From: Candidatus Margulisiibacteriota bacterium | GTDB lineage: Bacteria > Margulisbacteria > WOR-1 > O2-12-FULL-45-9 | Reading direction: 5' to 3' | Length of the DNA: 59,395 bases | Assembly (NCBI GenBank): GCA_034723395.1 | Contig: JAYEOW010000048.1 | Location: 1-59,395, forward strand | Shown: in pieces, positions 7,858 through 58,265 of the stretch | How the letters are laid out: the number at the start of each line of letters is the position of its first letter | How positions within the stretch are numbered: position 1 is the stretch's first letter | Program-made: the position numbers and the translations under genes | The notes under the pieces: generated by a model | Database searches by the model: none | The model's input: only the letters and a program-made list of their open reading frames with translations | Told to the model about the DNA's origin: nothing

Positions 7858-7885
7858 TGAAATTTTCCCCATTCTTTCCTGATAT
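7858..7885 (+). promoter_or_regulatory. Putative sigma-28-like promoter, copy 1
   Basis: tGAAA-ttttccccattcttt (15 nt)-CCTGATAT, 6 nt before the ATG at 7892; same motif at 12242 and 58238. Confidence 0.55.
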
Positions 7886-7891
7886 ATAGAT

Positions 7892-9064
7892 ATGAGCAAG
7901 AGTTTTTTATTAAGACGCAGAGGATTAATGGAGCGCCGGACAATAGTAAAAACCAGATTTCTGGAGAATAAGCAAAAAATTATCGAAAAGCGCTGGATCA
8001 AAGCCCTCCAAAAAGATTATAAAACCGCTAAAGTAGCTTTTAATAGGCTGCTTAAATTGAGTGCTTATCAATTGCCCGCAAGTATTCTGTTGGCGGCCAG
8101 TAAATGGGATGCAGATAAAGGGTCTTTATTAGCTGAATTTAATAAACTTAAGAAGATATTACCCATTGATCTTATTAGCAAAGGAGATATCGGTTCGATC
8201 TCAAAGTTTGAAAGCAAAGGAATTTTTGGGATAACAGATATTGGCGGGAGAAGAAACAATGAGGATGCAATTGCGGTTTTTAAACATAAGGGGAAGATAT
8301 ATTTGTTGTTAGCGGATGGGGTGGGAGGAGCAGCGGATGGGGAGATCGCCTCCCATTTAGCCCTTTTACACATGATGGTTGCGCTTGAAAAGGATCCGCA
8401 TAATCTTGACGCGGCCATTCGAAAAGCGAGTGATATGGTTAAGCAGGGGATAGAATCAACAGGAACTCCGGGGACAACGCTTGTTGTCGCCATGATCGAA
8501 AAGGATCTAGTTACCGTTGCTCATGTCGGAGACAGCCCGATCTTCCTGCTTAAGCGGAGCGGGGAGCTCCGGCTGTTGACTCTGCCGCATTCTCAAACCA
8601 TCAACATGGCAAGAATGATCAGGGATAAAGATGTAAAGGTATTTATTAAGGATGGTTTACCAGAGGAGATTAAAGGTGAATTAAATAAGATAGATATGGA
8701 TAAGCCGCCTTTCCCATTTAAGTTGTTATATCTAATTAATCAGGTGGAGGAATTCATGATAGGTTTTACACCTTTTACCCGCAGGATGGTGGGGGCGGTC
8801 AATAGAATTGTCGGGATCAAGGTTGGGGATGTTATCCCGATTTATAACTTTAGGATACAAAAAGGGGAAAGGCTCTTGCTTACATCTGATGGACTGGATC
8901 TGACATGGCATAACCGAAAGGGGATGAATTTGGGAAAAGTTCTGGTTGAGGCAATGAATCAAACTGATCGACTAGGCATTCGAATGCATAAATTTATGCA
9001 AGTAGTAAGATCATTGCAGGGTAGAGATGATGATAATGCGTCCGGGATAATATATGAAGCTTAA
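7892..9064 (+). CDS. PP2C/PPM-family Ser/Thr protein phosphatase with an unrecognised ~105-aa N-terminal extension
   Basis: TDIGGRRNNEDA, LADGVGG, GTTL, AHVGDS, LTSDGL and DDN motifs. Confidence 0.85.
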   Translation: MSKSFLLRRRGLMERRTIVKTRFLENKQKIIEKRWIKALQKDYKTAKVAFNRLLKLSAYQLPASILLAASKWDADKGSLLAEFNKLKKILPIDLISKGDIGSISKFESKGIFGITDIGGRRNNEDAIAVFKHKGKIYLLLADGVGGAADGEIASHLALLHMMVALEKDPHNLDAAIRKASDMVKQGIESTGTPGTTLVVAMIEKDLVTVAHVGDSPIFLLKRSGELRLLTLPHSQTINMARMIRDKDVKVFIKDGLPEEIKGELNKIDMDKPPFPFKLLYLINQVEEFMIGFTPFTRRMVGAVNRIVGIKVGDVIPIYNFRIQKGERLLLTSDGLDLTWHNRKGMNLGKVLVEAMNQTDRLGIRMHKFMQVVRSLQGRDDDNASGIIYEA

Positions 9065-9370
9065 TTATTCCCACTCGATAGTCGACGGCGGTTTTGAGGA
9101 GATATCATAAACTACACGATTAACTTCCGGGGTTTCATTTACAATCCGATTAGAAATCTTTTCAAGTAACTCATAAGGCAACCTCGCCCAATCGGCGGTC
9201 ATTGCATCTTTGGATTCAACTGCACGAATGGCAACCGTATTCAGATAAGTTCTTTTATCACCCATAACTCCCACTGTTCGAATTGGAAGAAGAACGGCGA
9301 ACGATTGCCAGAGCTTTTTATATAATCCAGCGCTTTTAATTTCGCCGACAACGATATCATCCACTTCCTG
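9065..9370 (-). pseudogene. Diverged duplicate of the 3' 306 bp of guaA
   Basis: Colinear with 10662-10967; protein near-identical (GEIKSAG vs SEIKEAG) with many synonymous changes; no 5' part. Confidence 0.92.
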
Positions 9371-9862
9371 TTTTTCGAAAATGCTAGTGTAGATGATGTG
9401 TCTGAAATAATGTTAAATAGATTCGAAGAATTAGTCCTCCCTTTTTGGGAAAAGGCGAAGAAAGATACAAGCTATACTCTGCATGAAATTATTACTTTAG
9501 CATCGATTATTGAGAAAGAGGCACAGAAAAAGAGTGAGCGGAAGATTATCTCATCCGTCTATCATAATCGTTTGAATAAAAAAATGTTCCTGGCAGCTTG
9601 CCCAACGATCAAATATGCTTTAGACTGGCCGACGAAAAAAGTTTACTATGAACAGCTCGATGTAAAATCCCCGTATAATACATATAAGAATAAGGGGTTG
9701 CCGCCGGGGCCGATCGCAAATCCCGGGATCGAATCGATTAAAGCGGCGGTTTATCCAGCTAAAACCAATTATTATTATTTTGTTGCAAAAAAAGACGGCA
9801 GCCACATTTTTTCCTCGACCTTTCAGGGGCATCAGCAGGGGAGACAAGAGAGTAAAAAATAA
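9371..9862 (+). pseudogene. Diverged duplicate of the 3' ~490 bp of mltG
   Basis: [21 protein letters not shown]... aligns with MltG FFEKGEIEDLVEVMLARFEEL from 7366 onward; lacks the N-terminus and TM anchor; fused to the guaA fragment. Confidence 0.92.
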
Positions 9863-9870
9863 AATTTAAG

Positions 9871-10422
9871 TTATTTTTCCAGGCAATCTTTAAATATTTT
9901 GAGAAGGTTTTTCTCGGGTGATATGTTTTCGAAATCTCTAAGCCACTTTTGAATATAATTAATATCAATAGATGGATTTTTTATCAAAATGCTTTTTACA
10001 TCTTCAATATCCCGGGCCCTGCCAGCGAATATTTTGTGGATTATGACATCTTCCGGAGAGGCAAAGTTTACTTTTGTTTTGCCGATCCTGATTTTTTTTG
10101 CGTTCTCTATGGCTTGCTGTTCGAAGGGGGTGAAGGAGAATATAAAATCAATCCGGATTTTACTTTTTTTGTCCTGGCTCGGCAGTACCCAGGTTTTTTT
10201 GGCAAAATCAACAGGGTTGTCGGGCAGAGGGTGCAATTTTAGTATTTTTAAAATATCCAGGATCAGAGATAATTTATCGGTCCCAATTCCCAGCGTAATA
10301 TCTATGTCCCTGGTTAGCCTGGGTTCTCCATATAATAAAACTGCTTGTCCGCCGATGATCATGTAGGGGATATCTGTTTTCCCCAAAGCCTTGGCGATTT
10401 TTTCAATTAGTTTTTCGAACAT
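9871..10422 (-). CDS. Nucleotidyltransferase-family protein (AbiEii/DUF6036-like)
   Basis: YMIIGGQAV...PRLTRDIDI (GG-x-DxD) and ASPEDVIIHKIFAGRARDIEDV. Confidence 0.8.
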   Translation of the reverse strand: MFEKLIEKIAKALGKTDIPYMIIGGQAVLLYGEPRLTRDIDITLGIGTDKLSLILDILKILKLHPLPDNPVDFAKKTWVLPSQDKKSKIRIDFIFSFTPFEQQAIENAKKIRIGKTKVNFASPEDVIIHKIFAGRARDIEDVKSILIKNPSIDINYIQKWLRDFENISPEKNLLKIFKDCLEK

Positions 10423-10598
10423 GAATTTAAAATTTTGGCGATCCTTAGATCTTTTTCAATTCCTTCGAGCGGATTTTTGGATGGAAGCACTTTTAGTGAT
10501 AAGGCTTCCTGCCATAAGGACTCGAATATCCTCATTGCTTCCTTAAAGCTTAGTTTTTCCTTGTCGAACATCCTTAGTAATTCAGGTTTCTTGATCAT
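10407..10598 (-). CDS. Small helical protein, probable partner (antitoxin-like) of the nucleotidyltransferase
   Basis: 63 aa, overlaps the downstream gene start; TGCTATAAT extended -10 just upstream. Confidence 0.6.
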   Translation of the reverse strand: MIKKPELLRMFDKEKLSFKEAMRIFESLWQEALSLKVLPSKNPLEGIEKDLRIAKILNSCSKN

Positions 10599-10661
10599 TG
10601 CCGGTATAAATTATAGCATAAGGTCCCGGAGGGTTCTATGAAGAATATCGGAAGTGAGCGC

Positions 10662-12218
10662 TCACTCCCACTCGATCGTCGAAGGCGGCTTTGAGGAGAT
10701 ATCATAAACTACACGATTAACTTCCGGGGTTTCATTTACAATCCGATTAGAAATCTTTTCAAGTAACTCGTAAGGCAATCTTGCCCAGTCCGCGGTCATT
10801 GCATCTTTGGATTCAACTGCACGAATAGCTACCGTATTCAGATAAGTTCTCTTGTCTCCCATAACTCCAACGGTTCGAATCGGGAGGAGAACGGCGAAGG
10901 ATTGCCAGAGCTTTTTATACAAACCGGCTTCCTTGATTTCGCTGACCACAATGTCATCCACTTCCTGGAGGATTTTTACTCTTTCTTTAGTTACTTCGCC
11001 AATGATCCGGATCGAAAGGCCCGGCCCGGGGAAAGGTTGGCGGGAAATGATTTCATCCGGAACGCCCAAGCCTCTGCCTAAAGCTCGAACTTCGTCTTTG
11101 AATAGTAAGCGGAGCGGTTCGATGAGCTTAAATCCCATTTTTTCAGGAAGCCCGCCGACGTTGTGGTGGGTCTTGATCTTCTTGGCGACTTTTCCGGTAG
11201 TCGTTCCTGGGACTGCACTTTCGATCACGTCCGGATATAAAGTTCCCTGAGCGAGATAGGGGATATCGCCTAATTTCTTAGCCTCTTCTTCAAAGGTGCG
11301 GATAAAATTCTCTCCGATTATCTTTCTTTTCTTTTCAGGATCAATTACTCCTTTGAGTTTGTCGAAGAATCTTTTGGCGGCATCGATATGAATAAAATTG
11401 ATCTTGAATTTACTGGTAAAGAGCTCATTTATTTTTTTGGCTTCGTTTTTGCGCATGAAGCCCTGGTCGATGAACATACAGGTGAGCTGATTGCCGATCG
11501 CCTTTTGGATCAGCGCCGCCACGGTGGTAGAATCAACTCCGCCGGAGAGGGCAAGTAATATTTTTTCTTTTCCGACCCTGGTGCGGATATCTTTTACCTG
11601 CTCTTCAATGAAATTGGCGGTGGTCCAGGTCGGTTTACAGTTGCAAACGATATAGACAAAGTTCTTTAATATCTCTATTCCTTTAGGGGTATGGACGACT
11701 TCGGGATGGAACTGAACGCCGAATAGTTTCTTTTCCGCATTTCCGATCGCGGCAAATTTCGTATTGTCGGTGTGGGCCAGCTGTTTAAATCCTTCCGGAA
11801 GGGATGCGACCGTATCACCGTGGCTCATCCACGACTTGATCTTGTTTGGCAGTCCAGCAAAGATGTTGGTCTCATCATCGATTAGAGGGTCGGCCTTGCC
11901 GTACTCTTTTTTCTCTCCCTGTTTTACTTCGCCCCCGAGCTCTTTGGTCATTAATTGAAGGCCGTAGCAGATGCCAAGGATCGGGATCCCGCAGTTCCAA
12001 AGCGCTGGATCGGCTTTGGGGGCGTCTTTTTCGTATACCGAAGCAGGGCCGCCGGAAACAATTATGCCCCTAACGTTTCTTTTCTTGAGTTCGGAAACCG
12101 GGATATCGTGGGGGAGGACTTCGCAGTAAACATTGCATTCGCGGACTCTTCTTGCGATCAGCATCGAATACTGGGCGCCAAAATCGAGAACAACTACGAG
12201 GTCATGCTTCTGTGCCAT
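10662..12218 (-). CDS. guaA: GMP synthase, glutamine-hydrolysing (start moved to MAQKHD at 12218)
   Basis: [50 protein letters not shown]. Confidence 0.98.
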
Positions 12219-12241
12219 ATGAGAGTATAACATAACTAAAT

Positions 12242-12269
12242 TGAAATTTTCAATAATTGCTGTCGATAA
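12242..12269 (+). promoter_or_regulatory. Putative sigma-28-like promoter, copy 2
   Basis: tGAAA-ttttcaataattgct (15 nt)-GTCGATAA, 6 nt before the ATG at 12276. Confidence 0.6.
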
Positions 12270-12275
12270 GGAGAC

Positions 12276-13058
12276 ATGAGTGCGGGAAAAGTTACAATGG
12301 TTGCTCATTACGGGCCCAAAAAGCAAAACTTAGCCAGGTTTATCCGGGCCCTCCAAAAAAAGGTAAAGGAAGGATTGGGAAGAAAATATTCCCGAGTTTT
12401 TAAGCCTTATCGGGTAGAACAGGTGCATGCGACGTTGGTTGGGATGGAAGGCGGACCGGGTGGGATAAACCGTAATTTCAATAATGCTTTAGAGCAGCGG
12501 AAACGTATGGATTTTGAAGGGTTGCTTCGTTTTATCCAGAATACCAATATTTTCCCGATGCGGATCCAATTTGGACGGATTTTCCCCTTCAGGGATTACG
12601 GCTTTAAGACGTCTAATGAGCATCCGGCTGACTGGACTTTTAGGTTTAGAGAAGCCCAGGTGATAGTGATCGGGTGGCCGGCAAAAAGAGGAAGCAGCCT
12701 GCAGGATCCCTTATGCCAGGATCTGGAATTGTTCAGGCGGGCGGTCCAGTCTTTTGGGATTCGGCATAAATTTCATGAAAAGCCCGGCGATTATGATAAT
12801 GATTTCTACATGGTTTTAGGAACTATCGATAGAGCCAGGATTACCAAGGGGGCCATGTCCCAATATGCTGAAAGGACCGCTGATCTTGAGCAGAAAGTTA
12901 GAAGAGAGTTAATGGTCAATCCGCCGCTTCGGATAAAAGTTGGAATGGAGGATATATCGGTTGTTAAATATGAAGATTCAAAATTACCCGTGAGAGGAAC
13001 GACTGCTTATCCGATTATAAATCTATCCGCATCACAAATTCAAAGTTTATTTGGATAA
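12276..13058 (+). CDS. Hypothetical protein, possibly 2H-phosphoesterase-like
   Basis: 260-aa ORF between guaA and guaB on the opposite strand; one HxT motif (QVHATLV). Confidence 0.65.
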
Positions 13059-13075
13059 ATACGGCCCCTAATTAA

Positions 13076-14236
13076 CTACTTATACATCCCCAACTGCTGT
13101 GCTTTTTGGAAAACTTTCCCTTCGGTCAAGATCGAGGGAGCAATTACCACTTCAACCTGCTGCATCTCTTTAATGTTCGCCGCGCCTAAGGTTCCCATCG
13201 AGGTTTTTAGCGCTCCCACAAAATTCATTGAGCCGTCATCATACTTTGCCGGGCCGTGAAGGATTTCTTTTAGCGATCCGATGGTTCCGACTTTGACTCT
13301 AGAACCACGGGGAAGCGTAGGAGAGGGAGTCGCCATTCCCCAGTGATAGTCTCCGCCGGGGGATTCGGTTGCTTTAGCGATCGGCGAACCGATCATCACC
13401 GCGTCCGCTCCGCAGGCGATCGCTTTACAGATATCTCCACCGACGACCATTCCGCCATCGGCGATGATAGGAACGTAAACATTATTTTCTTTAAAGTATG
13501 CGTTGCGGGCTGCAACACAATCGGCGATCGAGGTTGCCATCGGGACGCCGATGCCAAGAACTCCGCGTGAAGTGCAGGCGGCGCCGGGGCCGATCCCAAC
13601 TAAAACACCGGCAACCCCGGTTCCCATTAAAGTTAATGCCACTTCATAAGTTACACAGTTTCCAACCAGCACCGGGATTTCCATCATTTTGCAGAATTCT
13701 TTCAGGTCTAACGCTTTAGAGGTTGACGATTTATGTTTAGTAGATATAACCGTTGACTGGAGGACAAAAATGTCTACCCCGGCATCGCGGGCGATCGGTC
13801 CTAGTTCAATTGCATCCTGGGGAATAGAAGAGGCAGCGGCGATCGCTCCGCTTTTTTTGATCTCTTTAATTCTTTTTATGACTAATTCTTTTTTTATCGG
13901 TTCCTGATAAAGTTTTTGCATCAGCGGGACATATTCTTCTTTGCTGACCGAGGATATCTGTTTCAGTATCTTTTCTGCGTCTTCATAACGTGTCCAGACC
14001 CCCTGCAGGTTCAAAACTCCTAATCCGCCAAGCTCGCTCATTAAGATCGCGGTCTTTGGGCTGACCACGCCATCCATTGCAGAAGCTATGACCGGGACTT
14101 CGAGTTTCTTCCCGCCAATCTCAACCGAAACATCCGCGTCGTCGGGGTTGATGGTGACGATCGAGGGGACTAAAGATATCTCATCGAATCCATAAACTCT
14201 CCGGGTCTTTTTTGACTTTCCTAACATGATTTCCAT
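13076..14236 (-). CDS. guaB: GuaB3-type IMP dehydrogenase (no CBS domains)
   Basis: YGFDEISLVP, ASAMDGVV, catalytic loop GIGPGAACTSR, IADGG, HWGMA. Confidence 0.93.
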   Translation of the reverse strand: MEIMLGKSKKTRRVYGFDEISLVPSIVTINPDDADVSVEIGGKKLEVPVIASAMDGVVSPKTAILMSELGGLGVLNLQGVWTRYEDAEKILKQISSVSKEEYVPLMQKLYQEPIKKELVIKRIKEIKKSGAIAAASSIPQDAIELGPIARDAGVDIFVLQSTVISTKHKSSTSKALDLKEFCKMMEIPVLVGNCVTYEVALTLMGTGVAGVLVGIGPGAACTSRGVLGIGVPMATSIADCVAARNAYFKENNVYVPIIADGGMVVGGDICKAIACGADAVMIGSPIAKATESPGGDYHWGMATPSPTLPRGSRVKVGTIGSLKEILHGPAKYDDGSMNFVGALKTSMGTLGAANIKEMQQVEVVIAPSILTEGKVFQKAQQLGMYK

Positions 14237-14237
14237 T

Positions 14238-14534
14238 TTACTTTCTCCTCTTTTTGTTTTTCCGTTTTTTTCCGTGTGATCCCTTTATCCGTGGTTCTCT
14301 GTGTTTAGCGGTAGCGATCATTTTTTCAAATTCGTTCATCACCGGTTCCGGCACCCACACTTCGCCGCACTCCTGGCAAACATAGGCGGGGACGTTTTCC
14401 ATTAGATAAAGCTTACCATCCTGATAATCCTCGAGGTTTACCTTTTCAAGGCTCAATAACCCGCCGCAGGATTGGCACTCCTGGGGATTGCTGTCCTTTA
14501 AAAATTGTTTGTATTTTTCAAAATAGTCTGCCAT
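14238..14534 (-). CDS. YgiT/MqsA-type zinc-finger protein
   Basis: CQSCGG...ENVPAYVCQECGE; basic C-terminal tail. Confidence 0.8.
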   Translation of the reverse strand: MADYFEKYKQFLKDSNPQECQSCGGLLSLEKVNLEDYQDGKLYLMENVPAYVCQECGEVWVPEPVMNEFEKMIATAKHREPRIKGSHGKKRKNKKRRK

Positions 14535-14571
14535 TGGGATTAAACGGACATTATAACTAAAAACTTCATTC

Positions 14572-14599
14572 TTGACAATAGTCTCTTAATTGCTATAAT
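14572..14599 (+). promoter_or_regulatory. Sigma-70 promoter
   Basis: TTGACA-16 nt-TATAAT with a TG extended -10; GGAGG upstream of the TTG start at 14623. Confidence 0.8.
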
Positions 14600-14622
14600 C
14601 GCCCCAAGGTGGAGGTGTCACG

Positions 14623-15294
14623 TTGAAAAAAATATTGATCTTACTTTTCGTCATTATTTACGCGGCGGCGAGTTTTGCCGCAAATTTGGCCGATAAGAAA
14701 GCTGAACTTTCGCGGGTAAAAAAATATATCCGTTCACTCGATGCTAAGATCGTAGCGGCCAGGTCTGCCCGAAAGATCAATAAACTTGCAGAATTAAAAG
14801 ATCTAAAACGCCGCCAGCTTGAAAGAGCAAAATTAATCAGGAAAGATATTGCTGAGTTGGAAACGGGAGAGAAGAAGCCGGAGGTAAAAAAAGAAGCGAA
14901 ACCGCAACCGAAGCCGGATGAAGGGAAGCGGGGCCGTCAGTTCGAGGTTGGATACGGAGGCGGAACATTGCTGTTGGGCAGTGCGTACTCGTTTCCTTTT
15001 AGGAATTTGAATTTGCAGGCAAAAGCGGGCTATGGGATCGGAAACGGCTATTCGATCTTAGATGCTGGGATCAGAGCGCTCTTTGCGGTGAGAGGAAACA
15101 AGGTTGGGGTAGAGCTGGGAATGGCAAATTATTCCGAGACCGTTGCGGACATACTGGGGGTAGCAGGGAATATTGATAAAGGGACAAAACTGGGGTTTGG
15201 AGTTTTCCTGGTGCGGCCCGTATTTAAGTACACTGGGCGGATAGGCTACAATACGGCTTTGGGATTGACCGCATCCCTGCTGTACAAGTTTTAA
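14623..15294 (+). CDS. Secreted protein with a coiled-coil N-terminal part and a probable beta-barrel C-terminal part
   Basis: Signal peptide (AAASFA), Lys/Arg/Glu helical region, Gly/aromatic alternating strands, C-terminal YKF. Confidence 0.65.
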   Translation: MKKILILLFVIIYAAASFAANLADKKAELSRVKKYIRSLDAKIVAARSARKINKLAELKDLKRRQLERAKLIRKDIAELETGEKKPEVKKEAKPQPKPDEGKRGRQFEVGYGGGTLLLGSAYSFPFRNLNLQAKAGYGIGNGYSILDAGIRALFAVRGNKVGVELGMANYSETVADILGVAGNIDKGTKLGFGVFLVRPVFKYTGRIGYNTALGLTASLLYKF

Positions 15295-15301
15295 TTTAAG
15301 C

Positions 15302-15330
15302 TTGACACTAATGCGGGGTTAGCTTATAAT
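15302..15330 (+). promoter_or_regulatory. Consensus sigma-70 promoter
   Basis: TTGACA-ctaatgcggggttagct (17 nt)-TATAAT; AGGAGG RBS before 15360. Confidence 0.88.
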
Positions 15331-15359
15331 TTATCGAAACTTACTTAGGAGGTAAGAGT

Positions 15360-16349
15360 ATGAAAAAGATCGCAGGTTTATTAGGTGTTTTGATGTTAGT
15401 TGGTTTATTGTATGGATGTTCGACAACGCAGTCTGCTAGTAATCCGAATGATACCGATGTCCCGTGCTCGATTCCGTCTGATACAAACCTGACTGTTTCC
15501 GCGTCAAATATAACGGTGGGGAGCGACAGTAAGAGCCTCACTTTTAACATGGCCGCGATTGATCAAAATAATGCCGCATTTACTGACTTAACAAAGGGTA
15601 ACTTACAAGTTTCAGTTGCGAGCACTCCTGAGACCTGGACGATTACTTATATCGCTAACGGGGCAAACACCGGCACACGCAACTTTTCTATGGCTATGAC
15701 CCTGGATAGATCGGGAAGTATGTCTTCCGCTGACAATTCAAGTTTAGAGGCGGCGGCATTAAGCCTTGTTGGCTTGATCCCGCAGGGAGATGCTGATGTT
15801 GGAGTGATCAATTTTGCCAGCACGGTAACAGTAGATGCGACAATGACCACCGATAAAAGTTTGCAAAGTGTAGCCATAACTGACGAGTCGTACGTTGGGG
15901 GTAGTACCGCCTTATATGATTCGATGGGCGCGGCTATCGACTTGGTTTTAACAGGAGCTAACGGTTACAAGGTTGTTATTGCTATGACTGATGGCGGAGA
16001 GAATTACAGTTCTACTTATACAACGACCACTGAAATTATCGATTATTCAGTTCAAAGTGGCAATGTGCCTATTTTTGCCCTGGGTTATGGATTGTCTGCT
16101 TCCAGTGCGGCTGAGGTCGCAATGCAAAATATTGCTACTGGAACCGGTGGTTTGTATTACTCAGCCCCATCACCCGAAGCGCTCGTAGAAGTATATGATA
16201 CTCTTGCTTCAACGATGGCGAATGCATATCAGGTGAGTATATCCGGAAATACTGCATTGCCCGCAGGGACACACACTTTGACTATTGTGGTTAAGGATGA
16301 AAATGGAAATGTTGTATATACGGTTAGTGTTCCATTTGTAGTTTCCTAA
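15360..16349 (+). CDS. VWA-domain lipoprotein
   Basis: Lipobox LYGC; MIDAS DRSGSM, TALYD, MTDG. Confidence 0.85.
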   Translation: MKKIAGLLGVLMLVGLLYGCSTTQSASNPNDTDVPCSIPSDTNLTVSASNITVGSDSKSLTFNMAAIDQNNAAFTDLTKGNLQVSVASTPETWTITYIANGANTGTRNFSMAMTLDRSGSMSSADNSSLEAAALSLVGLIPQGDADVGVINFASTVTVDATMTTDKSLQSVAITDESYVGGSTALYDSMGAAIDLVLTGANGYKVVIAMTDGGENYSSTYTTTTEIIDYSVQSGNVPIFALGYGLSASSAAEVAMQNIATGTGGLYYSAPSPEALVEVYDTLASTMANAYQVSISGNTALPAGTHTLTIVVKDENGNVVYTVSVPFVVS

Positions 16350-50012: not shown

Positions 50013-50492
50013 TTACCCCCCCCTTTCCTTTTTTTGCGCTTTATATTCGATCAGTCCCATATCTTCGCCGATCGAATATTCGAGTTTGGACGACTCTTTT
50101 AAGAGGGCGCTGCGAAAGATCTGTGCAACAATTGTCGTGGTGCTGATCGTATTAAGCCCGAACTTTTTATAAATATCAGCGCGCAGAGGATCGTATATTC
50201 TGGTGATAACCCGGGGAACGTTGTATATCTTCTTGGCGATCTGGCTGACCATGATGTTTGAATTGTCGCCGTTGGTAACGGCGGCCAGAGCATCCGCCCG
50301 TTCAACCCCGGCTCGTTTTAAAATATCGGGATCAAAGCCTATACCGGTAATGCTTATGCCGTTGAAATCGGGGCCTAAGCGTTTGAATGATTTTGAATTT
50401 TTATCGATAATAACAACGTTATGGCCTTCCTGGGACAGGATTTGGGCCAGCTCTGAGCCGACCCTGCCGCAACCGACAATTATTATGTGCAT
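50013..50492 (-). CDS. trkA: TrkA-family regulator (RCK_N only)
   Basis: IVGCGRVG, AVTNGDNSN, RIYDP. Confidence 0.88.
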   Translation of the reverse strand: MHIIIVGCGRVGSELAQILSQEGHNVVIIDKNSKSFKRLGPDFNGISITGIGFDPDILKRAGVERADALAAVTNGDNSNIMVSQIAKKIYNVPRVITRIYDPLRADIYKKFGLNTISTTTIVAQIFRSALLKESSKLEYSIGEDMGLIEYKAQKKERGG

Positions 50493-50495
50493 TGA

Positions 50496-51119
50496 TTATG
50501 ACTCCTTCTTGGCTAAAGTTTCAGAAGGCTGGCCGTTTGGTTTTAAAACCCCGCCAGATACCACGTACCTGAACGCATCTTCGATCTTCATGTCGAGCAA
50601 GGTAACTTCGCGTGCCGGCACAACGATTAAAAATCCGGTTGCCGGGGTGGGGGTGTTGCAGATAAAAATATTGATCATCTTTTCTTTAGCTTTGGCCTCG
50701 ATCTCCGCCGCGGCGTCAGAGGTTACAAAACCTACCGACCAGATCCCTTTGCGCGGATACTCAATAATGCATGCCCTGCGGTATTCATCGGCGCTTTTTT
50801 GGATAAAGAGGACATCGTTGATCTGTTTAACTGCCGAATAAATACTTTTAACGATCGGCAATCGGAATAATATCCACTCCCCGAATTTAAAAAGCTTTGC
50901 TCCGATGATATAGGTGGCGAAGAACCCGGTGAGAAAGATAATTATTACGGTAAGGATAAAACCTAACCCGGGGTACGACTCGCCGGTGACCAGGGTGATG
51001 AAATTGCCTAAAATCCCGTCTAAAAAGGTGAAGATGAAATAGAGCAGCCAGGTAGTTATTAATAATGGTAAAAGAGTTATCAACCCTCGAAAAAAGTAAC
51101 CACTCATCTTATTCCACAT
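50496..51119 (-). CDS. DUF502 membrane protein
   Basis: FFRGLITLLP, PIVKSIYSAVKQ, EYPRKG, TPTPATGF. Confidence 0.9.
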   Translation of the reverse strand: MWNKMSGYFFRGLITLLPLLITTWLLYFIFTFLDGILGNFITLVTGESYPGLGFILTVIIIFLTGFFATYIIGAKLFKFGEWILFRLPIVKSIYSAVKQINDVLFIQKSADEYRRACIIEYPRKGIWSVGFVTSDAAAEIEAKAKEKMINIFICNTPTPATGFLIVVPAREVTLLDMKIEDAFRYVVSGGVLKPNGQPSETLAKKES

Positions 51120-51139
51120 ATATTATCCTCCGTTTCGTA

Positions 51140-51233
51140 TGATTATGTTGATAGAAAAATGATTACGGTAATGGGAACATGATTAAGATGATAGAAATCA
51201 CCGTAATCAGTTAGAATCACCGTAATCACCGTA
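51140..51233. repeat. Intergenic 9-10-bp tandem repeats in inverted arrangement
   Basis: tgatta.../tgatag... units followed by aatcaccgt x3. Confidence 0.65.
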
Positions 51234-51285
51234 TGATAGCATTGAGGTTTGCTTTTTTCAACCGGCATATGTTATACTCCCGCCC

Positions 51286-51519
51286 ATGACACATGCTTAT
51301 ATTTTAATCGAGGCACTGCCGGGGAAAGCGATCGAGTTGATCAGCGTGGCCGAGGGAATCAAAGGGGTAAAAACGGCGCAGCTGGTAACCGGTCCCTATG
51401 ATGTAATTATATTTGCTGAAGCGCCAGATCTAAAGGAGCTGGGAGAGATGATTGTTAAAAAGCTCCAGGCGACCGGGAGTGTTGCCCGCACCTTAACTTG
51501 TGTTACTGTTGAGCGATAA
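51286..51519 (+). CDS. Lrp/AsnC ligand-binding-domain protein
   Basis: AYILIE...VTGPYDVI...TLTC; TGTTATACT 7 nt before the ATG. Confidence 0.88.
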   Translation: MTHAYILIEALPGKAIELISVAEGIKGVKTAQLVTGPYDVIIFAEAPDLKELGEMIVKKLQATGSVARTLTCVTVER

Positions 51520-53020
51520 GGCGGTTAATTGCGGCCAGGTAAGCTTTGGCTGAAGCGATAATGATGTCAGTGTCTGCCCCGTGGCCGACATAGATGCTCT
51601 CTTTATCTTTAATTCTTACCGTAACCTCGCCGAGCGCATCGGTCCCGCCGGTAATTGCCTGGATTGAATAATCTACCAGGCTCGATTTTATTTTGGTGAG
51701 TTTATCGATCGCTTTATAGACTGCGTCTACCGGGCCCGAACCATCCGATTCTTTTTCAATCGTCTTACCTTTATAGATAAGTTTTACTTTTGCTTTTGGC
51801 TTAACGTGGGTTCCTGAGCTGATATCAATGCTCTCGATCTTGTAGGTCTCTTCAACGATGTAGACCTCTTCAGCGACGATGATCTCGAGGTCGCGTTCTG
51901 AAACTTCTTTCTTTTTGTCGGCGATCTGGATAAATCTTTGATAAGCCTTTTCCAGGGAATCTTTATTGAGCTCGTAGCCCATATCTTTAAGTTTCGATTG
52001 GAGGGCGTGGCGGCCGGAATGCTTTCCCATTACGATCTTTGATTTGGTGAGCCCGATATCGTTTGGATGCATGATCTCATAAGTTTCTCTAGCTCTAAGA
52101 ACTCCGGATTGATGGATCCCTGCTTCGTGAGCGAAAGCATTTGCGCCGACTATCGCCTTGTTTGGCTGGACCATCATTCCGGTTAGGGTCGATACTAGCC
52201 GGCTAGTTTTATAAATTTCTTTTGTGTTGATATTTGTCCTACAATCAGCAAAGAAATCTTTGCGGGTCTTGATCGCCATTACAAGTTCTTCAAGCGAAGC
52301 GTTTCCGGCCCGTTCGCCGATGCCATTGATTGTGCATTCAACCTGATCCGCTCCCGCTTTTACCGCGGCAAGGGAATTTGCTACCGCAAGGCCGAGGTCG
52401 TTGTGGACATGGACACTGATGGTGACATTGTTCTTTTTTATCTCCGGGACATTTACAAAAACATTTTCGATCAGTTTACCGAATTCCCATGGGGTGGTAT
52501 ATCCGACGGTGTCTGGAATATTTACTGTTTTTGCTCCCGCTTCAATTACCGCTCTAATAACTTTATAGAGGAATGCCGGATCTGATCTTCCTGCATCTTC
52601 TGGCGAAAACTCAACATCCGGGCAGAGCGAACAGGCGAGTGTAACCATTTTAGCGGCCTGTTTGAGTACCTGGTCCGGGGTCATTCTAAGCTTTTTTTCC
52701 ATATGGATGGGTGAAGTGGCGATAAAAGTGTGAATTCTCGGTTTTTCAGCGGGTTTGATCGCTTCCCAAGCACGCTCGATATCCTCTTTCTTTGCGCGTG
52801 CGAGTGAACAAATAGAAGGTCCTTTTATCTGTTTTGCGATCACATTGATGGCGTCAAAGTCACCCTGCGAAGCGATCGCGAACCCCGCCTCAATAATATC
52901 AACATTGAGCTTAGCCAGTTGCCGGGCGATCTCCATCTTCTCTTCGGGATTAAGCGACGCTCCGGGGCACTGCTCGCCGTCGCGAAGGGTTGTATCAAAG
53001 ATTTTTATTGTTCTGGCCAT
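51503..53020 (-). CDS. leuA: 2-isopropylmalate synthase
   Basis: DTTLRDGEQ, HVHNDLG, NGIGERAGN, HEAGIHQ, GSGPVDA regulatory domain. Confidence 0.97.
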   Translation of the reverse strand: MARTIKIFDTTLRDGEQCPGASLNPEEKMEIARQLAKLNVDIIEAGFAIASQGDFDAINVIAKQIKGPSICSLARAKKEDIERAWEAIKPAEKPRIHTFIATSPIHMEKKLRMTPDQVLKQAAKMVTLACSLCPDVEFSPEDAGRSDPAFLYKVIRAVIEAGAKTVNIPDTVGYTTPWEFGKLIENVFVNVPEIKKNNVTISVHVHNDLGLAVANSLAAVKAGADQVECTINGIGERAGNASLEELVMAIKTRKDFFADCRTNINTKEIYKTSRLVSTLTGMMVQPNKAIVGANAFAHEAGIHQSGVLRARETYEIMHPNDIGLTKSKIVMGKHSGRHALQSKLKDMGYELNKDSLEKAYQRFIQIADKKKEVSERDLEIIVAEEVYIVEETYKIESIDISSGTHVKPKAKVKLIYKGKTIEKESDGSGPVDAVYKAIDKLTKIKSSLVDYSIQAITGGTDALGEVTVRIKDKESIYVGHGADTDIIIASAKAYLAAINRLIAQQ

Positions 53021-53081
53021 AATTTACTCCCAGGGAGGAGTAATTTTAGCATTTTTATTAAAGACGCGCAAGAAAGTTAAT

Positions 53082-54413
53082 TTAACTCCCGCTGACCGAA
53101 ATTCCGGAGACCAAAAGCGTAGGCGACCCAATATCCGCGATAAAACGGAGGTCAGATCCAACCGCCTCAATCGCTTCCAGCATTTCGATCAGGTTCCCGG
53201 CAATAGTTATCCCTCTAACTGGGAAAGTTTTCTCACCATTTTCGATCATTATCCCGGATGCACCAAAAGAGAAGTCTCCAGAGATCGGATTTGCAGTATG
53301 TAATCCCATTACTCGAGTAACAAATAATCCTTTTTCGATGGACTTGATAATTTCTTCGTGAGATTTGTCACCTGGTTTAATATAAAGATTGGTCGGGCCG
53401 ATAACCGGCAAGCTTTGGAATGATCCTCTAGCTGCATTTCCAGTCGATTTTGTTTTCCCTTTATTTGCGGTGTAGGTATTAAAAAGAAAGCTGTTTAGTT
53501 TTCCATTCTTGATCAGTTTTGTCTCTTGTGTTGGAACGCCTTCGCCGTCAAACGGAGCGCTGCCTAAACCATTTTTCAACCTCCCATTATCTATGATCGT
53601 TAACGATTTAGCCCCAACGATTTGTCCAATCTTATCCGCGAACAGCGATTTCCCTTTCTGTGCCGATTCTGAAGATAGGGGGGCGGCAAGCACTCCTAAA
53701 ATTTGACTGCCCACATAGGGATCGATCACTAGCGGAATTTTTTGGCTTGCTATCGGTTTTGCGCCGAGTAATTGAGTAGATCTTTCGGCCGCCTCTCTGC
53801 CGATCTTTTCTGGATTAAGATCGGTAATTTTTTTTACGAAATCCAAGCCAAAACCCATCTGCATCTCCTGATCGGAAACGGCGATCATTCCCGCATCGGC
53901 GCCGCAATAGTTTAATTTATAATTTGCATTCACCCCATTCGAATTGACGATTGTAACTTCGCTTTCCGAATCAGAATAGGAAACCTTTTCGGTTTTCTTT
54001 ACTCGTTTATCTGCTTTATAGGCGGCATCTTCGATCTTTAACGCTATTTTTATCTTATCTTCGATTGAAGTTTTATTTATTCTTTCGTCAAATAATTCAA
54101 TACGACCTTCTTGCTGCACTACGATACTACTTGGCAACCCCAGGAACTTATCTCGCTCCGAGTTCCCGGCATTCTGGATGGCCTGATCGATCGTCTCTTC
54201 CAGAACAGTTTCGTCGAGATCGGAAGTAAAGGCGAAACCGAGCTTTTTATCTTTAATTACTCGGATTCCGATGCCAGTCTCATCAATTTCATCAATTGCT
54301 TCGACCTCGCGGTCCAGAACATCGATCTTTAAGGTTTTCTCAGAGGCGAAAAAGACTTCGGCCTGGTCGACATCTTTGGCGAGAATTTTATCTAGGATTT
54401 CTTTTGCTTTCAT
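53082..54413 (-). CDS. TldD/PmbA family protein (PmbA/TldE-like)
   Basis: GIGIRV, PFDGEG, STGNA, SGDFS, ITIAGN; no HExxGH motif. Confidence 0.9.
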   Translation of the reverse strand: MKAKEILDKILAKDVDQAEVFFASEKTLKIDVLDREVEAIDEIDETGIGIRVIKDKKLGFAFTSDLDETVLEETIDQAIQNAGNSERDKFLGLPSSIVVQQEGRIELFDERINKTSIEDKIKIALKIEDAAYKADKRVKKTEKVSYSDSESEVTIVNSNGVNANYKLNYCGADAGMIAVSDQEMQMGFGLDFVKKITDLNPEKIGREAAERSTQLLGAKPIASQKIPLVIDPYVGSQILGVLAAPLSSESAQKGKSLFADKIGQIVGAKSLTIIDNGRLKNGLGSAPFDGEGVPTQETKLIKNGKLNSFLFNTYTANKGKTKSTGNAARGSFQSLPVIGPTNLYIKPGDKSHEEIIKSIEKGLFVTRVMGLHTANPISGDFSFGASGIMIENGEKTFPVRGITIAGNLIEMLEAIEAVGSDLRFIADIGSPTLLVSGISVSGS

Positions 54414-55378
54414 TGAGCTTGGACCGCGGTAATCGCGACAACGTTTACAACATCTTCAACGCTGCAGCCGCGGGAGAGATCATTTACCGGGTTTGCTTCA
54501 CCCTGAAAGATGGGGCCAAAAGCTTTAGCGTGCGCCAATCGTTCGGTAAGCTTATATCCAATATTTCCTGCGTCAAGATCAGGAAAGATCAAAATGTTTG
54601 CGTGTCCGGCAACGGCGCTGCCCGGAGCCTTTCGCTGTGCTACCACAGGGATAATTGCTGCATCTAATTGCAGCTCTCCATCAAGCGGGAGATCGGGCCT
54701 TTTTTTCTTGGCAATTTCGGTCGCTTTGATCACCTTGTCAACATCCGAATGGACGGCGGAGGTCTTAGTTGAAAAAGAGAGCATCGCTATCCGTGGTGTT
54801 TTGTCCATCAGCTTTTTAAAGGAATCAGCGGTTTGGATGGCAATGTCTGCTAGTTGGTCAGAGTGAGGATAGGGGACTACTCCGCAATCGGCGAAAAATA
54901 GGGTCCCATCTTCTCCAAATTGTTTATCATTCAAGATCATAACGAAAAAACTGGAGATGGTCGATTGGCCCTCCGCTTTTCCGATACATTCAACGGTGGC
55001 TTTGATCGTATCGGAAGTAAAATGGGTCGCTCCCGAGACCATCCCATCTGCTTCTCCCTGGCTAACCATCATCGCCGCAAAATATGGATAGTCATCGACC
55101 ATTAAATGCCTCGCTTTTTCGATGGTCATCCCGCGGTGGGCGCGTTTGTCTTTTAATGCCTGTACGAATTTATCTAATTTAGGATGATTTCGGGGAGAGA
55201 TTATTTTTGCTCCCGAGCTGTGCTCTCCGTCCTCTTTTCCGATCAGGATTATTTTGGCAAGTTTGCTTTTATGGACCAGTTCGGTGGCTTTTAATATGCG
55301 GGGGTCGTCGGATTCTGGCAATACGATAGTTTTGTCTAATCTTTTTGCTTTATTCCAGATTTCTCGTATAAAATCCAT
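54410..55378 (-). CDS. pta: Phosphate acetyltransferase
   Basis: VLPESDD, FADCG, AMLSFST, DGELQLDAA, FPDLDAGNIGYK, DLSRG. Confidence 0.96.
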   Translation of the reverse strand: MDFIREIWNKAKRLDKTIVLPESDDPRILKATELVHKSKLAKIILIGKEDGEHSSGAKIISPRNHPKLDKFVQALKDKRAHRGMTIEKARHLMVDDYPYFAAMMVSQGEADGMVSGATHFTSDTIKATVECIGKAEGQSTISSFFVMILNDKQFGEDGTLFFADCGVVPYPHSDQLADIAIQTADSFKKLMDKTPRIAMLSFSTKTSAVHSDVDKVIKATEIAKKKRPDLPLDGELQLDAAIIPVVAQRKAPGSAVAGHANILIFPDLDAGNIGYKLTERLAHAKAFGPIFQGEANPVNDLSRGCSVEDVVNVVAITAVQAQ

Positions 55379-55387
55379 CGCTTTATC

Positions 55388-56035
55388 CTACAACCGCGCC
55401 GCCAAAGAGTCAAGGTCGCGCTTATTACTGATACCTCTCTCCTTTAGCATGTCGATGAAGTGGGTCCAGATCTGATAAGTAAGCTCGGCGTCCCCAACCG
55501 CGCGGTGGCGGTTCTCGGCTTTCAATCCAAAATGAGCAGCGACGGTGTGCAGTTTATGGTTCCTCAAATTTGGCAGCAGGTATCTGGCGAGCTTAACGGT
55601 GCAAACCACGCGATTGTTCATTTCTGGTTGGTTTAGTTTCTTTAGATGATATTTAATGAAGTTAATATCAAAATCAGCGTTATGGGCGATCAGGATCGAA
55701 TCACCGATAAATTCGATAAAGCGGGGGAGTACTTCCTTCGCTGGCGGAGAATCTTTGACCATGGCATCGTTGATGCCGGTTAGCTCGGTAATTTTTTGAG
55801 ATATAGGATAATAAGTTTTAATTAGCGAGCTAAAAAGGTCCTGGATCTCTTTTCCTTTGACCTTAAACGCGCCGATCTCGGTTATTTCGCTGTCTGCCGG
55901 TTCCAGCCCCGTAGTTTCGATATCAAGGATAGTAAATTCCAATGACTCTAGGTTTTCACCTTTTGCACGATGGAGAAATTTATATTCTTTAGCCAGATCC
56001 TGGAACTGTTTATCTTTAGTAATGTCAGAGGTCAT
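55388..56035 (-). CDS. DEDDh 3'-5' exonuclease (DnaQ/PolC-exonuclease-like)
   Basis: LDIETTG, AHNADFD, HRAVGDA. Confidence 0.9.
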   Translation of the reverse strand: MTSDITKDKQFQDLAKEYKFLHRAKGENLESLEFTILDIETTGLEPADSEITEIGAFKVKGKEIQDLFSSLIKTYYPISQKITELTGINDAMVKDSPPAKEVLPRFIEFIGDSILIAHNADFDINFIKYHLKKLNQPEMNNRVVCTVKLARYLLPNLRNHKLHTVAAHFGLKAENRHRAVGDAELTYQIWTHFIDMLKERGISNKRDLDSLAARL

Positions 56036-56961
56036 TCGCTTGTAATTAACTCATACTTTCTACTGCCTAATCCGATCTCTTCAGCATACTGCAGTTGAAT
56101 GTTATAGTCAGCCTTTGGCCAAAGCTCTTTGAATATATCTTTTCCGGCAGATTTGTTAACTAAGTCGACACTTGCTTGGTCGATCGCCACCGGGTCGAAA
56201 GAGGCGATAATTCCGATGTCTGGAACGATCGGCGGGCCGTTGTGATCGTAGCAGTCACAATTCGGCGAAACATCGGTTATAAAATTAATATAGGCTGTTT
56301 TATTCCTGAATTTTTCAACAATTCCGTTGGTGTATTCAACCATCTTTTCCTGCACCAGCTGAGAAGATCCAAACCAGCATGCTTCAAAGGTCTGTTTTTT
56401 TCGGCAGGTTTTTACCTCCGGGCAATTTTTACAATCCGAATGCATATCGAGCTTTCCCCGAGGACTGCCGAGCCCCATTCCGATATTTTTTAGGACTCCG
56501 CCAAAACCGGTCAGCCCATGCCCTTTAAAATGGGTAATGGCGACCATTGCGTTGGCTTCAAATATCAACGCGCCGACATAGAGCATTTTAAAATGTTTGT
56601 AATTAACCGGGACCTTTTCGAACGTCTTTCCATGTATTCCATCGGCAATGATCACATGCGCGCCGGTTTTTCCAAAGGTGTAGCCGTGGTCGAAGGCGGT
56701 TTGTAAATGATCAAGGGTATTGCGCCGTGAACCGGGATAGAGGGTATTCGCATCGGTCCAGAAAGGTTTTCCTCCCGCCGCTCTGACCTTTTTTACGATC
56801 GGTTTTGCTCTTTGCGGTTTTATAAATGCTTTGTTTCCGCGCTCGCCGAAGTGTATCTTTAATGCAACGAAATCGTCTTTTGTGATTATTTTTGAGATAC
56901 CGGCGGCGTCGAATAATTGATCAACTTGATCCGGGTTTTTTGTGAAGAAGACCTTAGCCAT
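56032..56961 (-). CDS. DUF362 family Fe-S protein
   Basis: LKIHFGERGN, HFKGH, GGVLKNIGMG, SPNCDC, DPVAIDQAS. Confidence 0.85.
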   Translation of the reverse strand: MAKVFFTKNPDQVDQLFDAAGISKIITKDDFVALKIHFGERGNKAFIKPQRAKPIVKKVRAAGGKPFWTDANTLYPGSRRNTLDHLQTAFDHGYTFGKTGAHVIIADGIHGKTFEKVPVNYKHFKMLYVGALIFEANAMVAITHFKGHGLTGFGGVLKNIGMGLGSPRGKLDMHSDCKNCPEVKTCRKKQTFEACWFGSSQLVQEKMVEYTNGIVEKFRNKTAYINFITDVSPNCDCYDHNGPPIVPDIGIIASFDPVAIDQASVDLVNKSAGKDIFKELWPKADYNIQLQYAEEIGLGSRKYELITSE

Positions 56962-57592
56962 TCGAAAGTTCTTTAACTTTCTTATAATAGTCGAGCGCGT
57001 TGCGAACCTCTTTCATATCTTCCCAGGTCAGCCATTTGGGCGACCCCTTGGTCTTTTGCTGGTTTCTTAATAAATAAGCGGGATGGAAGATAGGCATAAC
57101 TGAGATCTCTTCATTCCCGGGTAGTTTTTTCCACTGTCCGCGGAGCTTTGACATCGGTTCGGTAGATTTTAAGATCGTTTTTACGGCTGGAGCGCCGGCG
57201 AGCAGGATAATTTTCGGTTTTATTAGTTTGATCTGTGCTTGTAAGTATGGCCGACAGGCGTCTTGTTCTGGACCAAGGGGAGCGCGATTGTTTGGCGGCC
57301 GGCATTTTACAGTATTGGCAATATAAATATCATCCGGCCTTTTGATATTAACTGATTCAAGGATCTTGGTTAGCAGCTGTCCTGAACGCCCGACGAATGG
57401 TCGTCCCTGGGCATCTTCGTCCGCTCCGGGAGCTTCGCCAATGAGCATTAAGTCGCACGGAACAGGGCCTTCTCCAAAAACGACATTCGTGCGCCCTTTT
57501 GAGAGCTCACACTTAGTGCATTTTTCAGCGATCGCCCTTAATTCTTCGTAAGAAAGGGACGAAAGATCGGGTTCATTTGAAAATAGGTCCAT
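56954..57592 (-). CDS. Family-4 uracil-DNA glycosylase
   Basis: [35 protein letters not shown]. Confidence 0.95.
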
Positions 57593-57634
57593 AACGGGAA
57601 AATTGTAGCATTTTTATTGAGATTGTGCAAAATA

Positions 57635-58228
57635 TTAAAAGGGGATCTGGATATTGAAGGGGAGTTTGGTTTGCGGGCAGATGATAAGGTATTTTGTAAT
57701 GAAGAAGACAAGGGGATGATTCTGCTCGTTTAGTTCAGATAATTCTTGGATATCTTCTGCGATCTTTGATTTTACATCATTCGCGCTAAGGGTTTTCCCT
57801 TTTGCGCTAAAAAGTATCAGGAAATTTTTTGGTCGATTTTTTGCCAGTCCGATTATCCAATCGTATATAAAATCGACTTTGGCACGGAAATCATCGTTTT
57901 TAGCCGCCGGATATTCGCCAAGGTAGCAGGAGCACTCATTAAATTTTTCGAACGCTCTTTCTGATATCTGTAAGCCTCTCTCGGATGAATCGAGCCTTCC
58001 TTCGGGGAAAAGATGCTCAAACTTTGCCCGCGCCGCCATAGCCATTAGAACGATTCTTTTTGCCTCATTAACTCTGGGTTTTGCTTGGGGATTGTACCTT
58101 AATTTTTGTAGATTATTTGTTTTTAAAAATGTTATGAGCCTAAACGCTTCCCCATGTCCTGCTTTTATCTGATCGGGCTTATATGCTCGAGTTATAATAC
58201 GCGATAACGGAAAAGATGTCTGTATCAT
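57635..58228 (-). CDS. Hypothetical (orphan) protein
   Basis: 197-aa ORF with no recognisable motif; preceded by the sigma-28-like motif. Confidence 0.65.
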   Translation of the reverse strand: MIQTSFPLSRIITRAYKPDQIKAGHGEAFRLITFLKTNNLQKLRYNPQAKPRVNEAKRIVLMAMAARAKFEHLFPEGRLDSSERGLQISERAFEKFNECSCYLGEYPAAKNDDFRAKVDFIYDWIIGLAKNRPKNFLILFSAKGKTLSANDVKSKIAEDIQELSELNEQNHPLVFFITKYLIICPQTKLPFNIQIPF

Positions 58229-58237
58229 GGTAATAAT

Positions 58238-58265
58238 ATATCGGCAGGTTTTTTTGGAAATTTCA
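58238..58265 (-). promoter_or_regulatory. Putative sigma-28-like promoter, copy 3
   Basis: Minus strand tGAAA-tttccaaaaaaacct (15 nt)-GCCGATAT, 9 nt before the ATG at 58228. Confidence 0.62.

Follow-up and report, generated by a model that had tools for sequence, protein, structure and literature searches.

Basal bodies that carry an export gate without flagellin are known from Buchnera (PMC3459982) and from the FT3SS of Lysobacter enzymogenes OH11 (PMC7688988), for which non-flagellar protein secretion has been proposed or shown, and the needle-less T3SS* of Myxococcus, involved with the Kil system in prey lysis, implicates type III machinery in action against bacteria (PMC12428579, PMC3459982). 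In Bdellovibrio bacteriovorus, a sigma-28-type promoter with a CGATA core defines a FliA attack-phase regulon of ~100 genes, which are scattered and for the most part hypothetical; 92 of its 140 promoters of the attack phase are FliA-type, with 59% hypothetical genes (PMC3627812). Here we analyse the window, that is, the whole 59,395 nt of contig JAYEOW010000048.1 (assembly GCA_034723395.1) from a Candidatus Margulisiibacteriota bacterium of the WOR-1 (Saganbacteria) lineage, in which three genes are preceded by the same sigma-28-like site, hereafter class-1. The window sites are part of a genome-wide set, and the reading that we favour, with a probability of about 0.6, is that this regulon consists mostly of the putatively secreted cargo of a flagellum-derived, non-motile type III export machine.

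The class-1 regulon shares with that of Bdellovibrio its promoter type, its CGATA core and its size and content. However, Bdellovibrio swims, whereas neither flagellin nor a motor was found in the source genome, which has two FliA-like sigma factors short in region 3 and two promoter classes; unlike the Bdellovibrio regulon, the targets here are mostly without Sec signals and have biased N-termini. The export machine would work most like the filament-less systems of Buchnera and Lysobacter, from which it differs in being phylum-wide in Margulisbacteria, in occurring beside a normal flagellum in 13 genomes and in its truncated FliG, as well as in a proposed sigma cascade of its own, a conserved cluster of putative distal proteins and ~100 candidate substrates. 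The Myxococcus T3SS*, in turn, is of the injectisome branch and without needle or outer-membrane channel, whereas the machine described here has kept a flagellar rod and L/P rings as well as a hook-like protein, and what it would carry are regulators and enzymes, not lytic proteins. We found no account of this regulon or machine in the literature searched, which did not cover subscription papers; the main text of the principal genomic paper on the group (PMC6349859) is silent on flagella, secretion, motility and sigma factors, although its supplements may list such genes.

Class-1 sites in the window and across the class

The three window sites had been predicted from the sequence of the stretch, and their coordinates, letters, the 15 nt between TGAAA and the terminal 8-mer, and the gaps to the following ATG were all confirmed (Table 1). 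Taken alone, the window shows a modest excess of the motif, with 3 matches against 0.70 ± 0.86 expected and 3 reached by 4 of 100 shuffles. The analysis also covered the source genome (G000; 1.68 Mb in 55 contigs, 97% complete) and its relatives (other G numbers), sampled as 65 genomes of the class and 146 of the phylum; G016 belongs to the same order as G000. The strict class-1 pattern has 95 matches in G000. A position weight matrix (PWM) scan of the kind proposed in the original prediction, with the consensus [GC]TGAAATTT-N~11-nnCGATA[AT], showed the motif to be far commoner than in shuffled sequence: 102 sites score at least 16 bits against 1–3 in five shuffles within 50-nt windows, and 71 score at least 20 bits against 0–1. 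Only 6 of the 102 sites are inside called genes, though 88% of G000 is coding, and at 82 of them an open reading frame (ORF) of at least 55 aa begins within 50 nt. There is some circularity in these figures, because the PWM was trained on G000 itself and, after its first round, only with intergenic sites. That first round, which started from a seed without such filtering, had 109 hits, of which 96 were outside genes. A fixed, non-circular pattern was present in 61 of 61 genomes, in 7–102 copies each, where its reversed control gave 0–2. The class-1 motif was found in all 65 class genomes, in 8–181 copies, and in other classes in 0–71 copies. Gene calls were made within the analysis and may include short ORFs or place some starts wrongly; the counts leave out genes whose motif score was intermediate (8–16 bits) and ORFs under 80–150 aa, depending on the analysis, and sampling of relatives comprised 400 kb each of G016, G031 and G053 and 30 of the 71 sites of G086.

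Sigma-28 promoters consist of a TAAA-like -35 box, a spacer of 15–16 nt and a (GC)CGATAA -10 box. The class-1 sites show all these traits upstream of genes, with the core GAAAT-N15-cCGATA[AT], in which G23, A24 and A26 have frequencies of 0.94–0.99; the CGATA core and the spacing agree with sigma-28, while the -35 element is TGAAA, not TAAA, and exact FliA-consensus hits number 4 in G000. They have no conserved -7 T (position 28 is A at 0.51), indicating that they are not sigma-70 promoters. The housekeeping contrast that the original prediction had drawn from the window also holds genome-wide: TTGAC-N-TAnnnT precedes 0 of 52 operon-leading motif genes against 51 of 559 others (3 with the pattern reversed), and TGnTAnAnT 0 of 52 against 103 of 559 (7 with the pattern reversed). 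It is very improbable that class-1 is a sigma-70 variant or a transcription-factor site. TGAAA does resemble a -35 box, the sequence after the core is often AT-rich, and 28 of 79 starts lie at most 9 nt from the motif, which implies leaderless messages; nevertheless, the -7 T and the canonical boxes are missing, and regions 2.4 and 4.2 of RpoD are canonical. The class-1 motif almost certainly marks a real alternative-sigma regulon.

FliA-like sigma factors and a flagellum-derived machine

The search for a FliA/WhiG-like sigma and flagellar-type export genes, also suggested originally, retrieved two FliA-like sigmas and an export gate without flagellin. Five sigma-70-family proteins from G000 exceed the Pfam cut-off, namely RpoD, an ECF, a group-3-like sigma, whose gene lies under a class-1 motif, and two with best hits to FliA/WhiG; these last score 135.6 and 75.1 bits, under the TIGR02479 cut-off of 189.6, and both are short in region 3. 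The gene for one of them, FliA1, is within a flgF-fliJ operon with a canonical TTGACA-17-TATAAT promoter. The other, FliA2 (Table 1), has its best family hits to FliA/WhiG and a region-4.2 helix that aligns with solved FliA and reads SESQ[VIAT][ST]RI in 20 of 20 genomes from other classes. FliA2 occurs in 136 of the 146 phylum genomes, in single copy except in G142, and its gene often adjoins flhA; in G016 and G031 it follows flhA, closing a fliK-flgE-fliMNOPQR-flhBA operon. In 10 of 30 loci, a class-1 site is found ~480 nt upstream of fliA2. Class-1 promoters are probably read by FliA2, and FliA1 would be paired to a second class of sites (class-2, below); this pairing is suggested by the order of the genes, by the class-1 site before fliA2 itself and by the resemblance of the FliA2 region-4.2 helix to that of FliA. 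Covariation of sigma and motif gave no signal to correlate among 20 genomes, because FliA2 region 4.2 is near invariant across them while class-1 counts range from 0 to 71. The 111-aa ORF before fliA2 (G000:C46:1377-1712), possibly a chaperone or regulator, has a 29%-identical paralogue at C29:54089-54424, which sits between two response-regulator-like genes and beside an RpoN-like gene.

Profile searches showed that G000 encodes FlhA, FlhB, FliOPQR, FliMN, FliHIJ, FliEF, and rod and L/P-ring genes including FlgH/FlgI, together with two FliK-like genes, a FlgE-like hook protein of 271 aa and a FliG of only 154 aa that matches just the N-terminal and middle parts. Thus, of the parts of a motile flagellum, the export gate, MS/C ring, rod and L/P rings are present, whereas flagellin, MotB and FlgD were not found in this 97% complete genome with positive controls, MotA, FlgK and FliD not having been searched by their own models; FlgM, MCP and CheW were likewise not found, also with positive controls. 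Across the 65 class genomes, FlhA is present in 62, a flagellin domain in 1 and MotB in 4. The single flagellin-domain match is at G019:C4:62270-62632 (E 6e-16), in a 253-aa frame. Thirteen flagellated genomes (G118–G130) have 2–3 FlhA matches each. The core components are closer to flagellar than to injectisome models: FlhA scores 770.8 bits against 661 for SctV, and FlhB, FliP, FliQ, FliR and FliI likewise score higher as flagellar. Judged by profile scores, the export machine is flagellar; with the filament, stator and hook-cap genes not found, it does not qualify as a motile flagellum, and by its core it is not an injectisome.

The class-2 motif, GCAAGT-N16-CGA[TA][AT], has 38 matches in G000 against 7–10 at neighbouring spacings, with 25 strong sites. 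The FliA-type promoter of Bdellovibrio reads TTAAG-N16-CCGATA, and class-2 shares its 16-nt spacing after AAG (PMC3627812). Class-2 occurs in 4–24 copies in 65 of 65 class genomes (variance/mean 1.7), whereas the variance/mean of class-1 counts is 16.6; steady numbers for one and variable numbers for the other are as expected for structure versus cargo. Class-2 sites precede fliK, the second fliK and a cluster on contig C16 (Table 1), whose 1838-aa protein has five hydrophobic segments and no family hit. A search with one profile located parts of the cluster, together with class-2 sites, in 18 of 146 genomes, including one from another class, and the 108-aa B family counts 128 representatives at 50% identity. 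The two 108-aa proteins have predicted folds (pLDDT 83 and 70) in the shape of helical hairpins whose turn is a beta-hairpin; their best fold matches (Z 8.2 and 7.8) are to unrelated hairpins, and the two families do not align with each other (5 sequences each). N-termini of class-2 proteins are acid-poor and rich in Ala, Asn, Pro and Gln (n = 17). The cluster may provide the distal conduit of the export machine; a needle or tip identity for the hairpin proteins is a guess, because no specific fold match was obtained, and the search for a needle or translocon in the cluster gave no significant Pfam, PDB-sequence, atlas or specific fold match. Separately, giant proteins of 3665 aa (G000:C3:14992-25989) and 4605 aa (C43:9269-23086) are encoded after a class-2 site and after a class-1 gene, respectively.

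The position of class-2 sites before fliK and the putative distal-part cluster suggests a cascade from sigma-70 through FliA1 and FliA2 to cargo. A sigma-70 promoter, visible in the sequence, would drive flgFGAHI-(flgJ-like)-fliA1-flgBC-fliEFG*HIJ. FliA1 would then read the ~25 class-2 sites (GCAAGT-N16-CGATA), both before fliK-flgE-fliMNOPQR-flhBA, running on to fliA2 in G016 and G031, and before the cluster of small helical-hairpin proteins and a giant protein with multiple transmembrane segments. Finally, FliA2 would read ~100 class-1 sites, before its own gene, rpoD and ~80–90 scattered, fast-turnover genes, most of whose products would be exported unfolded through the machine by an N-terminal signal of 15–50 residues. 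The three window sites would then be promoters of a late-sigma regulon of candidate exported effectors.

Class-1 products, their N-termini and their possible destination

The Pfam scan of the regulon covered 87 of 104 kept sites, the window's three being scanned separately and the rest being short or uncovered ORFs; 54 of the 87 proteins had no hit and 33 had one. Metabolic hits are PGK, PFK, PGM, a nucleotidyltransferase, two PPDK_N proteins, an amino-acid-kinase-family protein and CofD/YvcK; regulatory hits are two RelA/SpoT, RpoD, the group-3-like sigma, three HATPase, CheR and a cyclase; further hits are two HD proteins, two Ser/Thr kinases, an ADP-ribosylglycohydrolase, GH16, GH116 and TPR proteins. 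In a 777-aa class-1 protein (G000:C33:3291-5624, L026), a sigma-like region is repeated internally, and sigma regions 3 and 4 are found at the C-terminus. Four adjacent genes at G000:C7:5766-15268 (L010), coding for a PPDK-like protein of 740 aa, PGK, a 474-aa protein without Pfam hit and a PPDK-like protein of 1405 aa, each have their own class-1 site, not one operon promoter. The regulon changes fast: when the genes of three relatives were compared with G000, homologues turned up for only 6 of 46 motif genes, against 575 of 906 other genes. A search for PGK orthologues in the 65 genomes (E 1e-60) matched 5, three of whose loci were scanned on one strand only; that of G032 has an extended N-terminus, but it is second in an operon behind a motif gene. 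The description of the motif genes as accessory has to be qualified: they are scattered and of fast turnover, but not all are accessory, as rpoD has a class-1 site in 5 of 7 genomes (G000, G016, G031, G059 and G086; weak in G130, none in G100).

Sec- or transmembrane-like N-termini are found in 5 of 114 motif genes against 567 of 2185 others in four class genomes, with depletion in all four. Motif counts, turnover and this depletion bear out the central proposal of an alternative, sigma-28-like regulon of dispersed, fast-changing genes mostly without Sec signals. In composition tests, which exclude hydrophobic N-termini, residues 2–26 in G000 contain 0.94 acidic residues in motif genes against 2.82 in others, and 3.14 Arg against 1.32 (one start rule, n 63/859, p ~1e-18); the bias fades by residue 50. 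It holds when only genes with a Shine-Dalgarno sequence are compared (23/274, p 7e-8), and also when the comparison is with 456 genes that have neither the motif nor a homologue in the genomes sampled, so it is not a property of orphans. The leaders have 33 acidic residues, whereas shuffling the nucleotides of their DNA gives 102 ± 9; the other frames of this DNA contain 122 and 68 stops. The signature transfers to G016 with an area under the curve (AUC) of 0.87. These results leave very little room for the bias being an artefact of first-ATG choice, which the short distances from motif to start might suggest and which is favoured by one public gene call, where the group-3-like sigma starts 44 residues later: the bias persists under one start rule and with Shine-Dalgarno support, acidic residues amount to 2.5% against 6.6% in stop-free intergenic DNA (the random-DNA expectation), and the basic N-terminus is kept by orthologues of the PP2C-family phosphatase of the window.

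The motif-bearing PGK, PFK, PGM, RelA, nucleotidyltransferase and HD protein exceed the other copies in G000 by 8–65 residues at the N-terminus. Chlamydia trachomatis, too, secretes housekeeping enzymes by a type III route, its PGM (CT295) having acquired a lineage-specific N-terminal signal for export of the sort proposed here (PMC9251005, PMC4829429); however, Chlamydia has an injectisome and a eukaryotic host, whereas here the machine derives from a flagellum and the host is conjectural. In G000, the N-termini for which the original prediction postulated leaders are distinctive in composition at the protein level, although their acid-poor, Arg-rich form is lineage-specific and not every motif gene has an extension, ORF 12276 in the window being one without.

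Several results weigh against the regulon being exported cargo under FliA2 control. The site ~480 nt upstream is missing from 20 of 30 fliA2 loci, and many genomes outside the class that keep FliA2 have class-1 counts of 0–6. The presence of rpoD and a few Sec-signal proteins means that the regulon is not only cargo. Part of the transfer to G016 is not specific to the N-terminus, as a body window also gives an AUC of 0.71, and the acid-poor, Arg-rich signature was not reproduced in G031, G053 and G086 (AUC 0.63, 0.54 and 0.59, n 13–19 each), whose N-termini lean to Ser, Thr, Asn and Gly; in G031, acidic residues are 2.2 against 2.8 (p 0.14). Type III patterns described for Pseudomonas syringae are Ser above 10%, an aliphatic residue or Pro at positions 3–4, and no acidic residue in the first 12 (PMC3338616); in G000 only the absence of acid in residues 2–12 is enriched (51/65 motif genes against 298/951 others), unlike aliphatic/Pro at 3–4 (33/65 against 449/951) and Ser (17/65 against 170/951, p 0.1), while in G016 all three are nominally enriched (p 0.002–0.04) and results elsewhere are mixed. 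Genes co-transcribed downstream of motif genes show no bias as a group (n 15, acid 2.47). The PGM extension was measured against a different PGM subfamily, and the alignment with a G016 homologue that has no motif begins close to its start; ORF 12276 has no N-terminal extension relative to its 2H-phosphoesterase-like look-alikes. Finally, MotB-like genes are common outside the class (59/146 in the phylum).

The products of 2 of 68 motif genes look like lipoproteins with a twin-arginine (Tat) signal: after a stretch of 14–23 residues come the twin-arginine motif, then a hydrophobic segment and a cysteine. The loose pattern used also matched 5 of 1279 other genes, none of RRxFL form. G000 has no TatC, and neither have 60 of 65 class genomes. 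Likewise, the regulon CheR (E 8e-34) coexists with no MCP or CheW in G000. CheR without receptors and Tat signals without TatC, although involving one or two genes of a draft genome, fit action in another prokaryotic cell. This leads us to suggest, tentatively, that the cargo, dozens of proteins, is delivered into the cytoplasm of prokaryotic hosts by an independently evolved, flagellum-derived injector of epibionts or parasites, reprogramming these hosts. If so, the delivered proteins would be sigma factors, RelA/SpoT, histidine-kinase-type proteins, CheR, YvcK/CofD, ATP-yielding enzymes and Tat lipoproteins, and the lifestyle would be that of Saganbacteria, and probably of Margulisbacteria at large.

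The same genes could instead form a life-stage regulon without export, in which FliA2 was co-opted as a global switch into dormancy, dispersal or the search for a host, while the regulon proteins remain cytoplasmic and their basic N-termini serve local binding or stability. We regard this as possible but unlikely. The inclusion of rpoD, glycolysis isoenzymes, RelA and sigma factors suits an internal programme, the leader flavour is not class-wide, and the Bdellovibrio attack-phase FliA switch offers a parallel (PMC3627812). It leaves unexplained, however, the retention of an export gate with two FliK-like rulers and no filament, the Sec depletion, CheR and Tat-type signals without their partners, and the near-total turnover of the regulon between genera.

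Export into a eukaryotic (protist) host appears more improbable still. The Arg-rich, acid-poor and weakly amphipathic N-termini, which we take to resemble organelle presequences, would double as organelle-targeting peptides, and a plastid or mitochondrion-like organelle would be where the sigma factors, RelA and Tat substrates do their work. The helical hydrophobic moment of G000 leaders, 0.608 against 0.567 ± 0.015 in shuffles (1/200), agrees with this, but the amphipathy is not significant in G016 (20/200). A eukaryotic cell could be the site of action of kinases, PP2C, cyclase, GH16 and GH116, some Margulisbacteria are reported to be protist-associated, and PGM is secreted by Chlamydia (PMC9251005); nonetheless, ankyrin, LRR, F-box, U-box and SET families are hit by 0 of 87 regulon proteins, ankyrin matches occur in only 15 of 65 class genomes, and no target in eukaryotes suggests itself for CheR or for histidine-kinase-type ATPase domains.

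If the regulon is indeed exported cargo, the class-1 motif would be a DNA tag listing the candidate secreted proteins, or effector repertoire, of any genome, and would give a testable lifestyle to a whole uncultured class next to Cyanobacteria. Should the cargo enter prokaryotic cells, one bacterium would be supplying another with regulatory effectors by a type III route, through a second, independent exaptation of the flagellum, which would bear on injectisome origins. Even the weaker reading leaves a proposed two-sigma FliA cascade over ~125 promoters, including rpoD, in filament-less bacteria.

Genes and partial duplications in the window

Table 1. Class-1 sites and their genes in the window, with the related loci discussed in the text (window positions unless a G000 contig is given)
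Feature	Position	Strand	Description
Class-1 promoter-like site TGAAA-N15-CCTGATAT	7858..7885	+	PWM 22.5 bits; ATG 6 nt on
PP2C-family phosphatase, 390 aa	7892..9064	+	Variable basic N-terminus ~1-22, conserved block ~25-105, PP2C domain from ~119
PP2C candidate export leader (putative function)	7892..7957	+	5 orthologues: length and sequence vary, Arg/Lys-rich and acid-poor throughout
Class-1 promoter-like site TGAAA-N15-GTCGATAA	12242..12269	+	PWM 20.1 bits; divergent from guaA; ATG 6 nt on
260-aa protein	12276..13058	+	No Pfam hit; no acidic residue in aa 2-26
197-aa orphan	57635..58228	-	One acidic residue in aa 2-26
Class-1 promoter-like site TGAAA-N15-GCCGATAT	58238..58265	-	PWM 28.3 bits; ATG 9 nt on
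FliA2, 196 aa	G000:C46:681-1271
Class-2 cluster (L198)	G000:C16:11932-27801		1838-aa protein; 97-, 77-, 108- and 108-aa proteins; 699-aa protein; glycosyltransferase-like gene

The PP2C-family phosphatase had been credited with a leader of ~105 residues, which had to be cut to ~22 aa because residues ~25–105 are conserved among five orthologues, at 47–51% identity in four full-length ones, and in one paralogue in G000. Look-alikes of ORF 12276 are unnamed bacterial clusters and 2H-phosphoesterase clusters. The orphan starting at 58228 has a homologue in G016 that is 25% identical and likewise bears a class-1 motif; directly upstream of it lies a 334-aa orphan ORF (58277-59281, minus strand) without Pfam hit, and there is no class-1 site between this ORF and the contig end. 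On the 3' side of the PP2C gene are a partial copy of the guaA 3' end (9065-9364, minus strand; source at 10662-12218) and a partial copy of the mltG 3' half (9398-9862, plus strand; source at 6745-7854), and these duplications at 9065-9862 would be either a rearrangement scar or an assembly artefact around an insertion.

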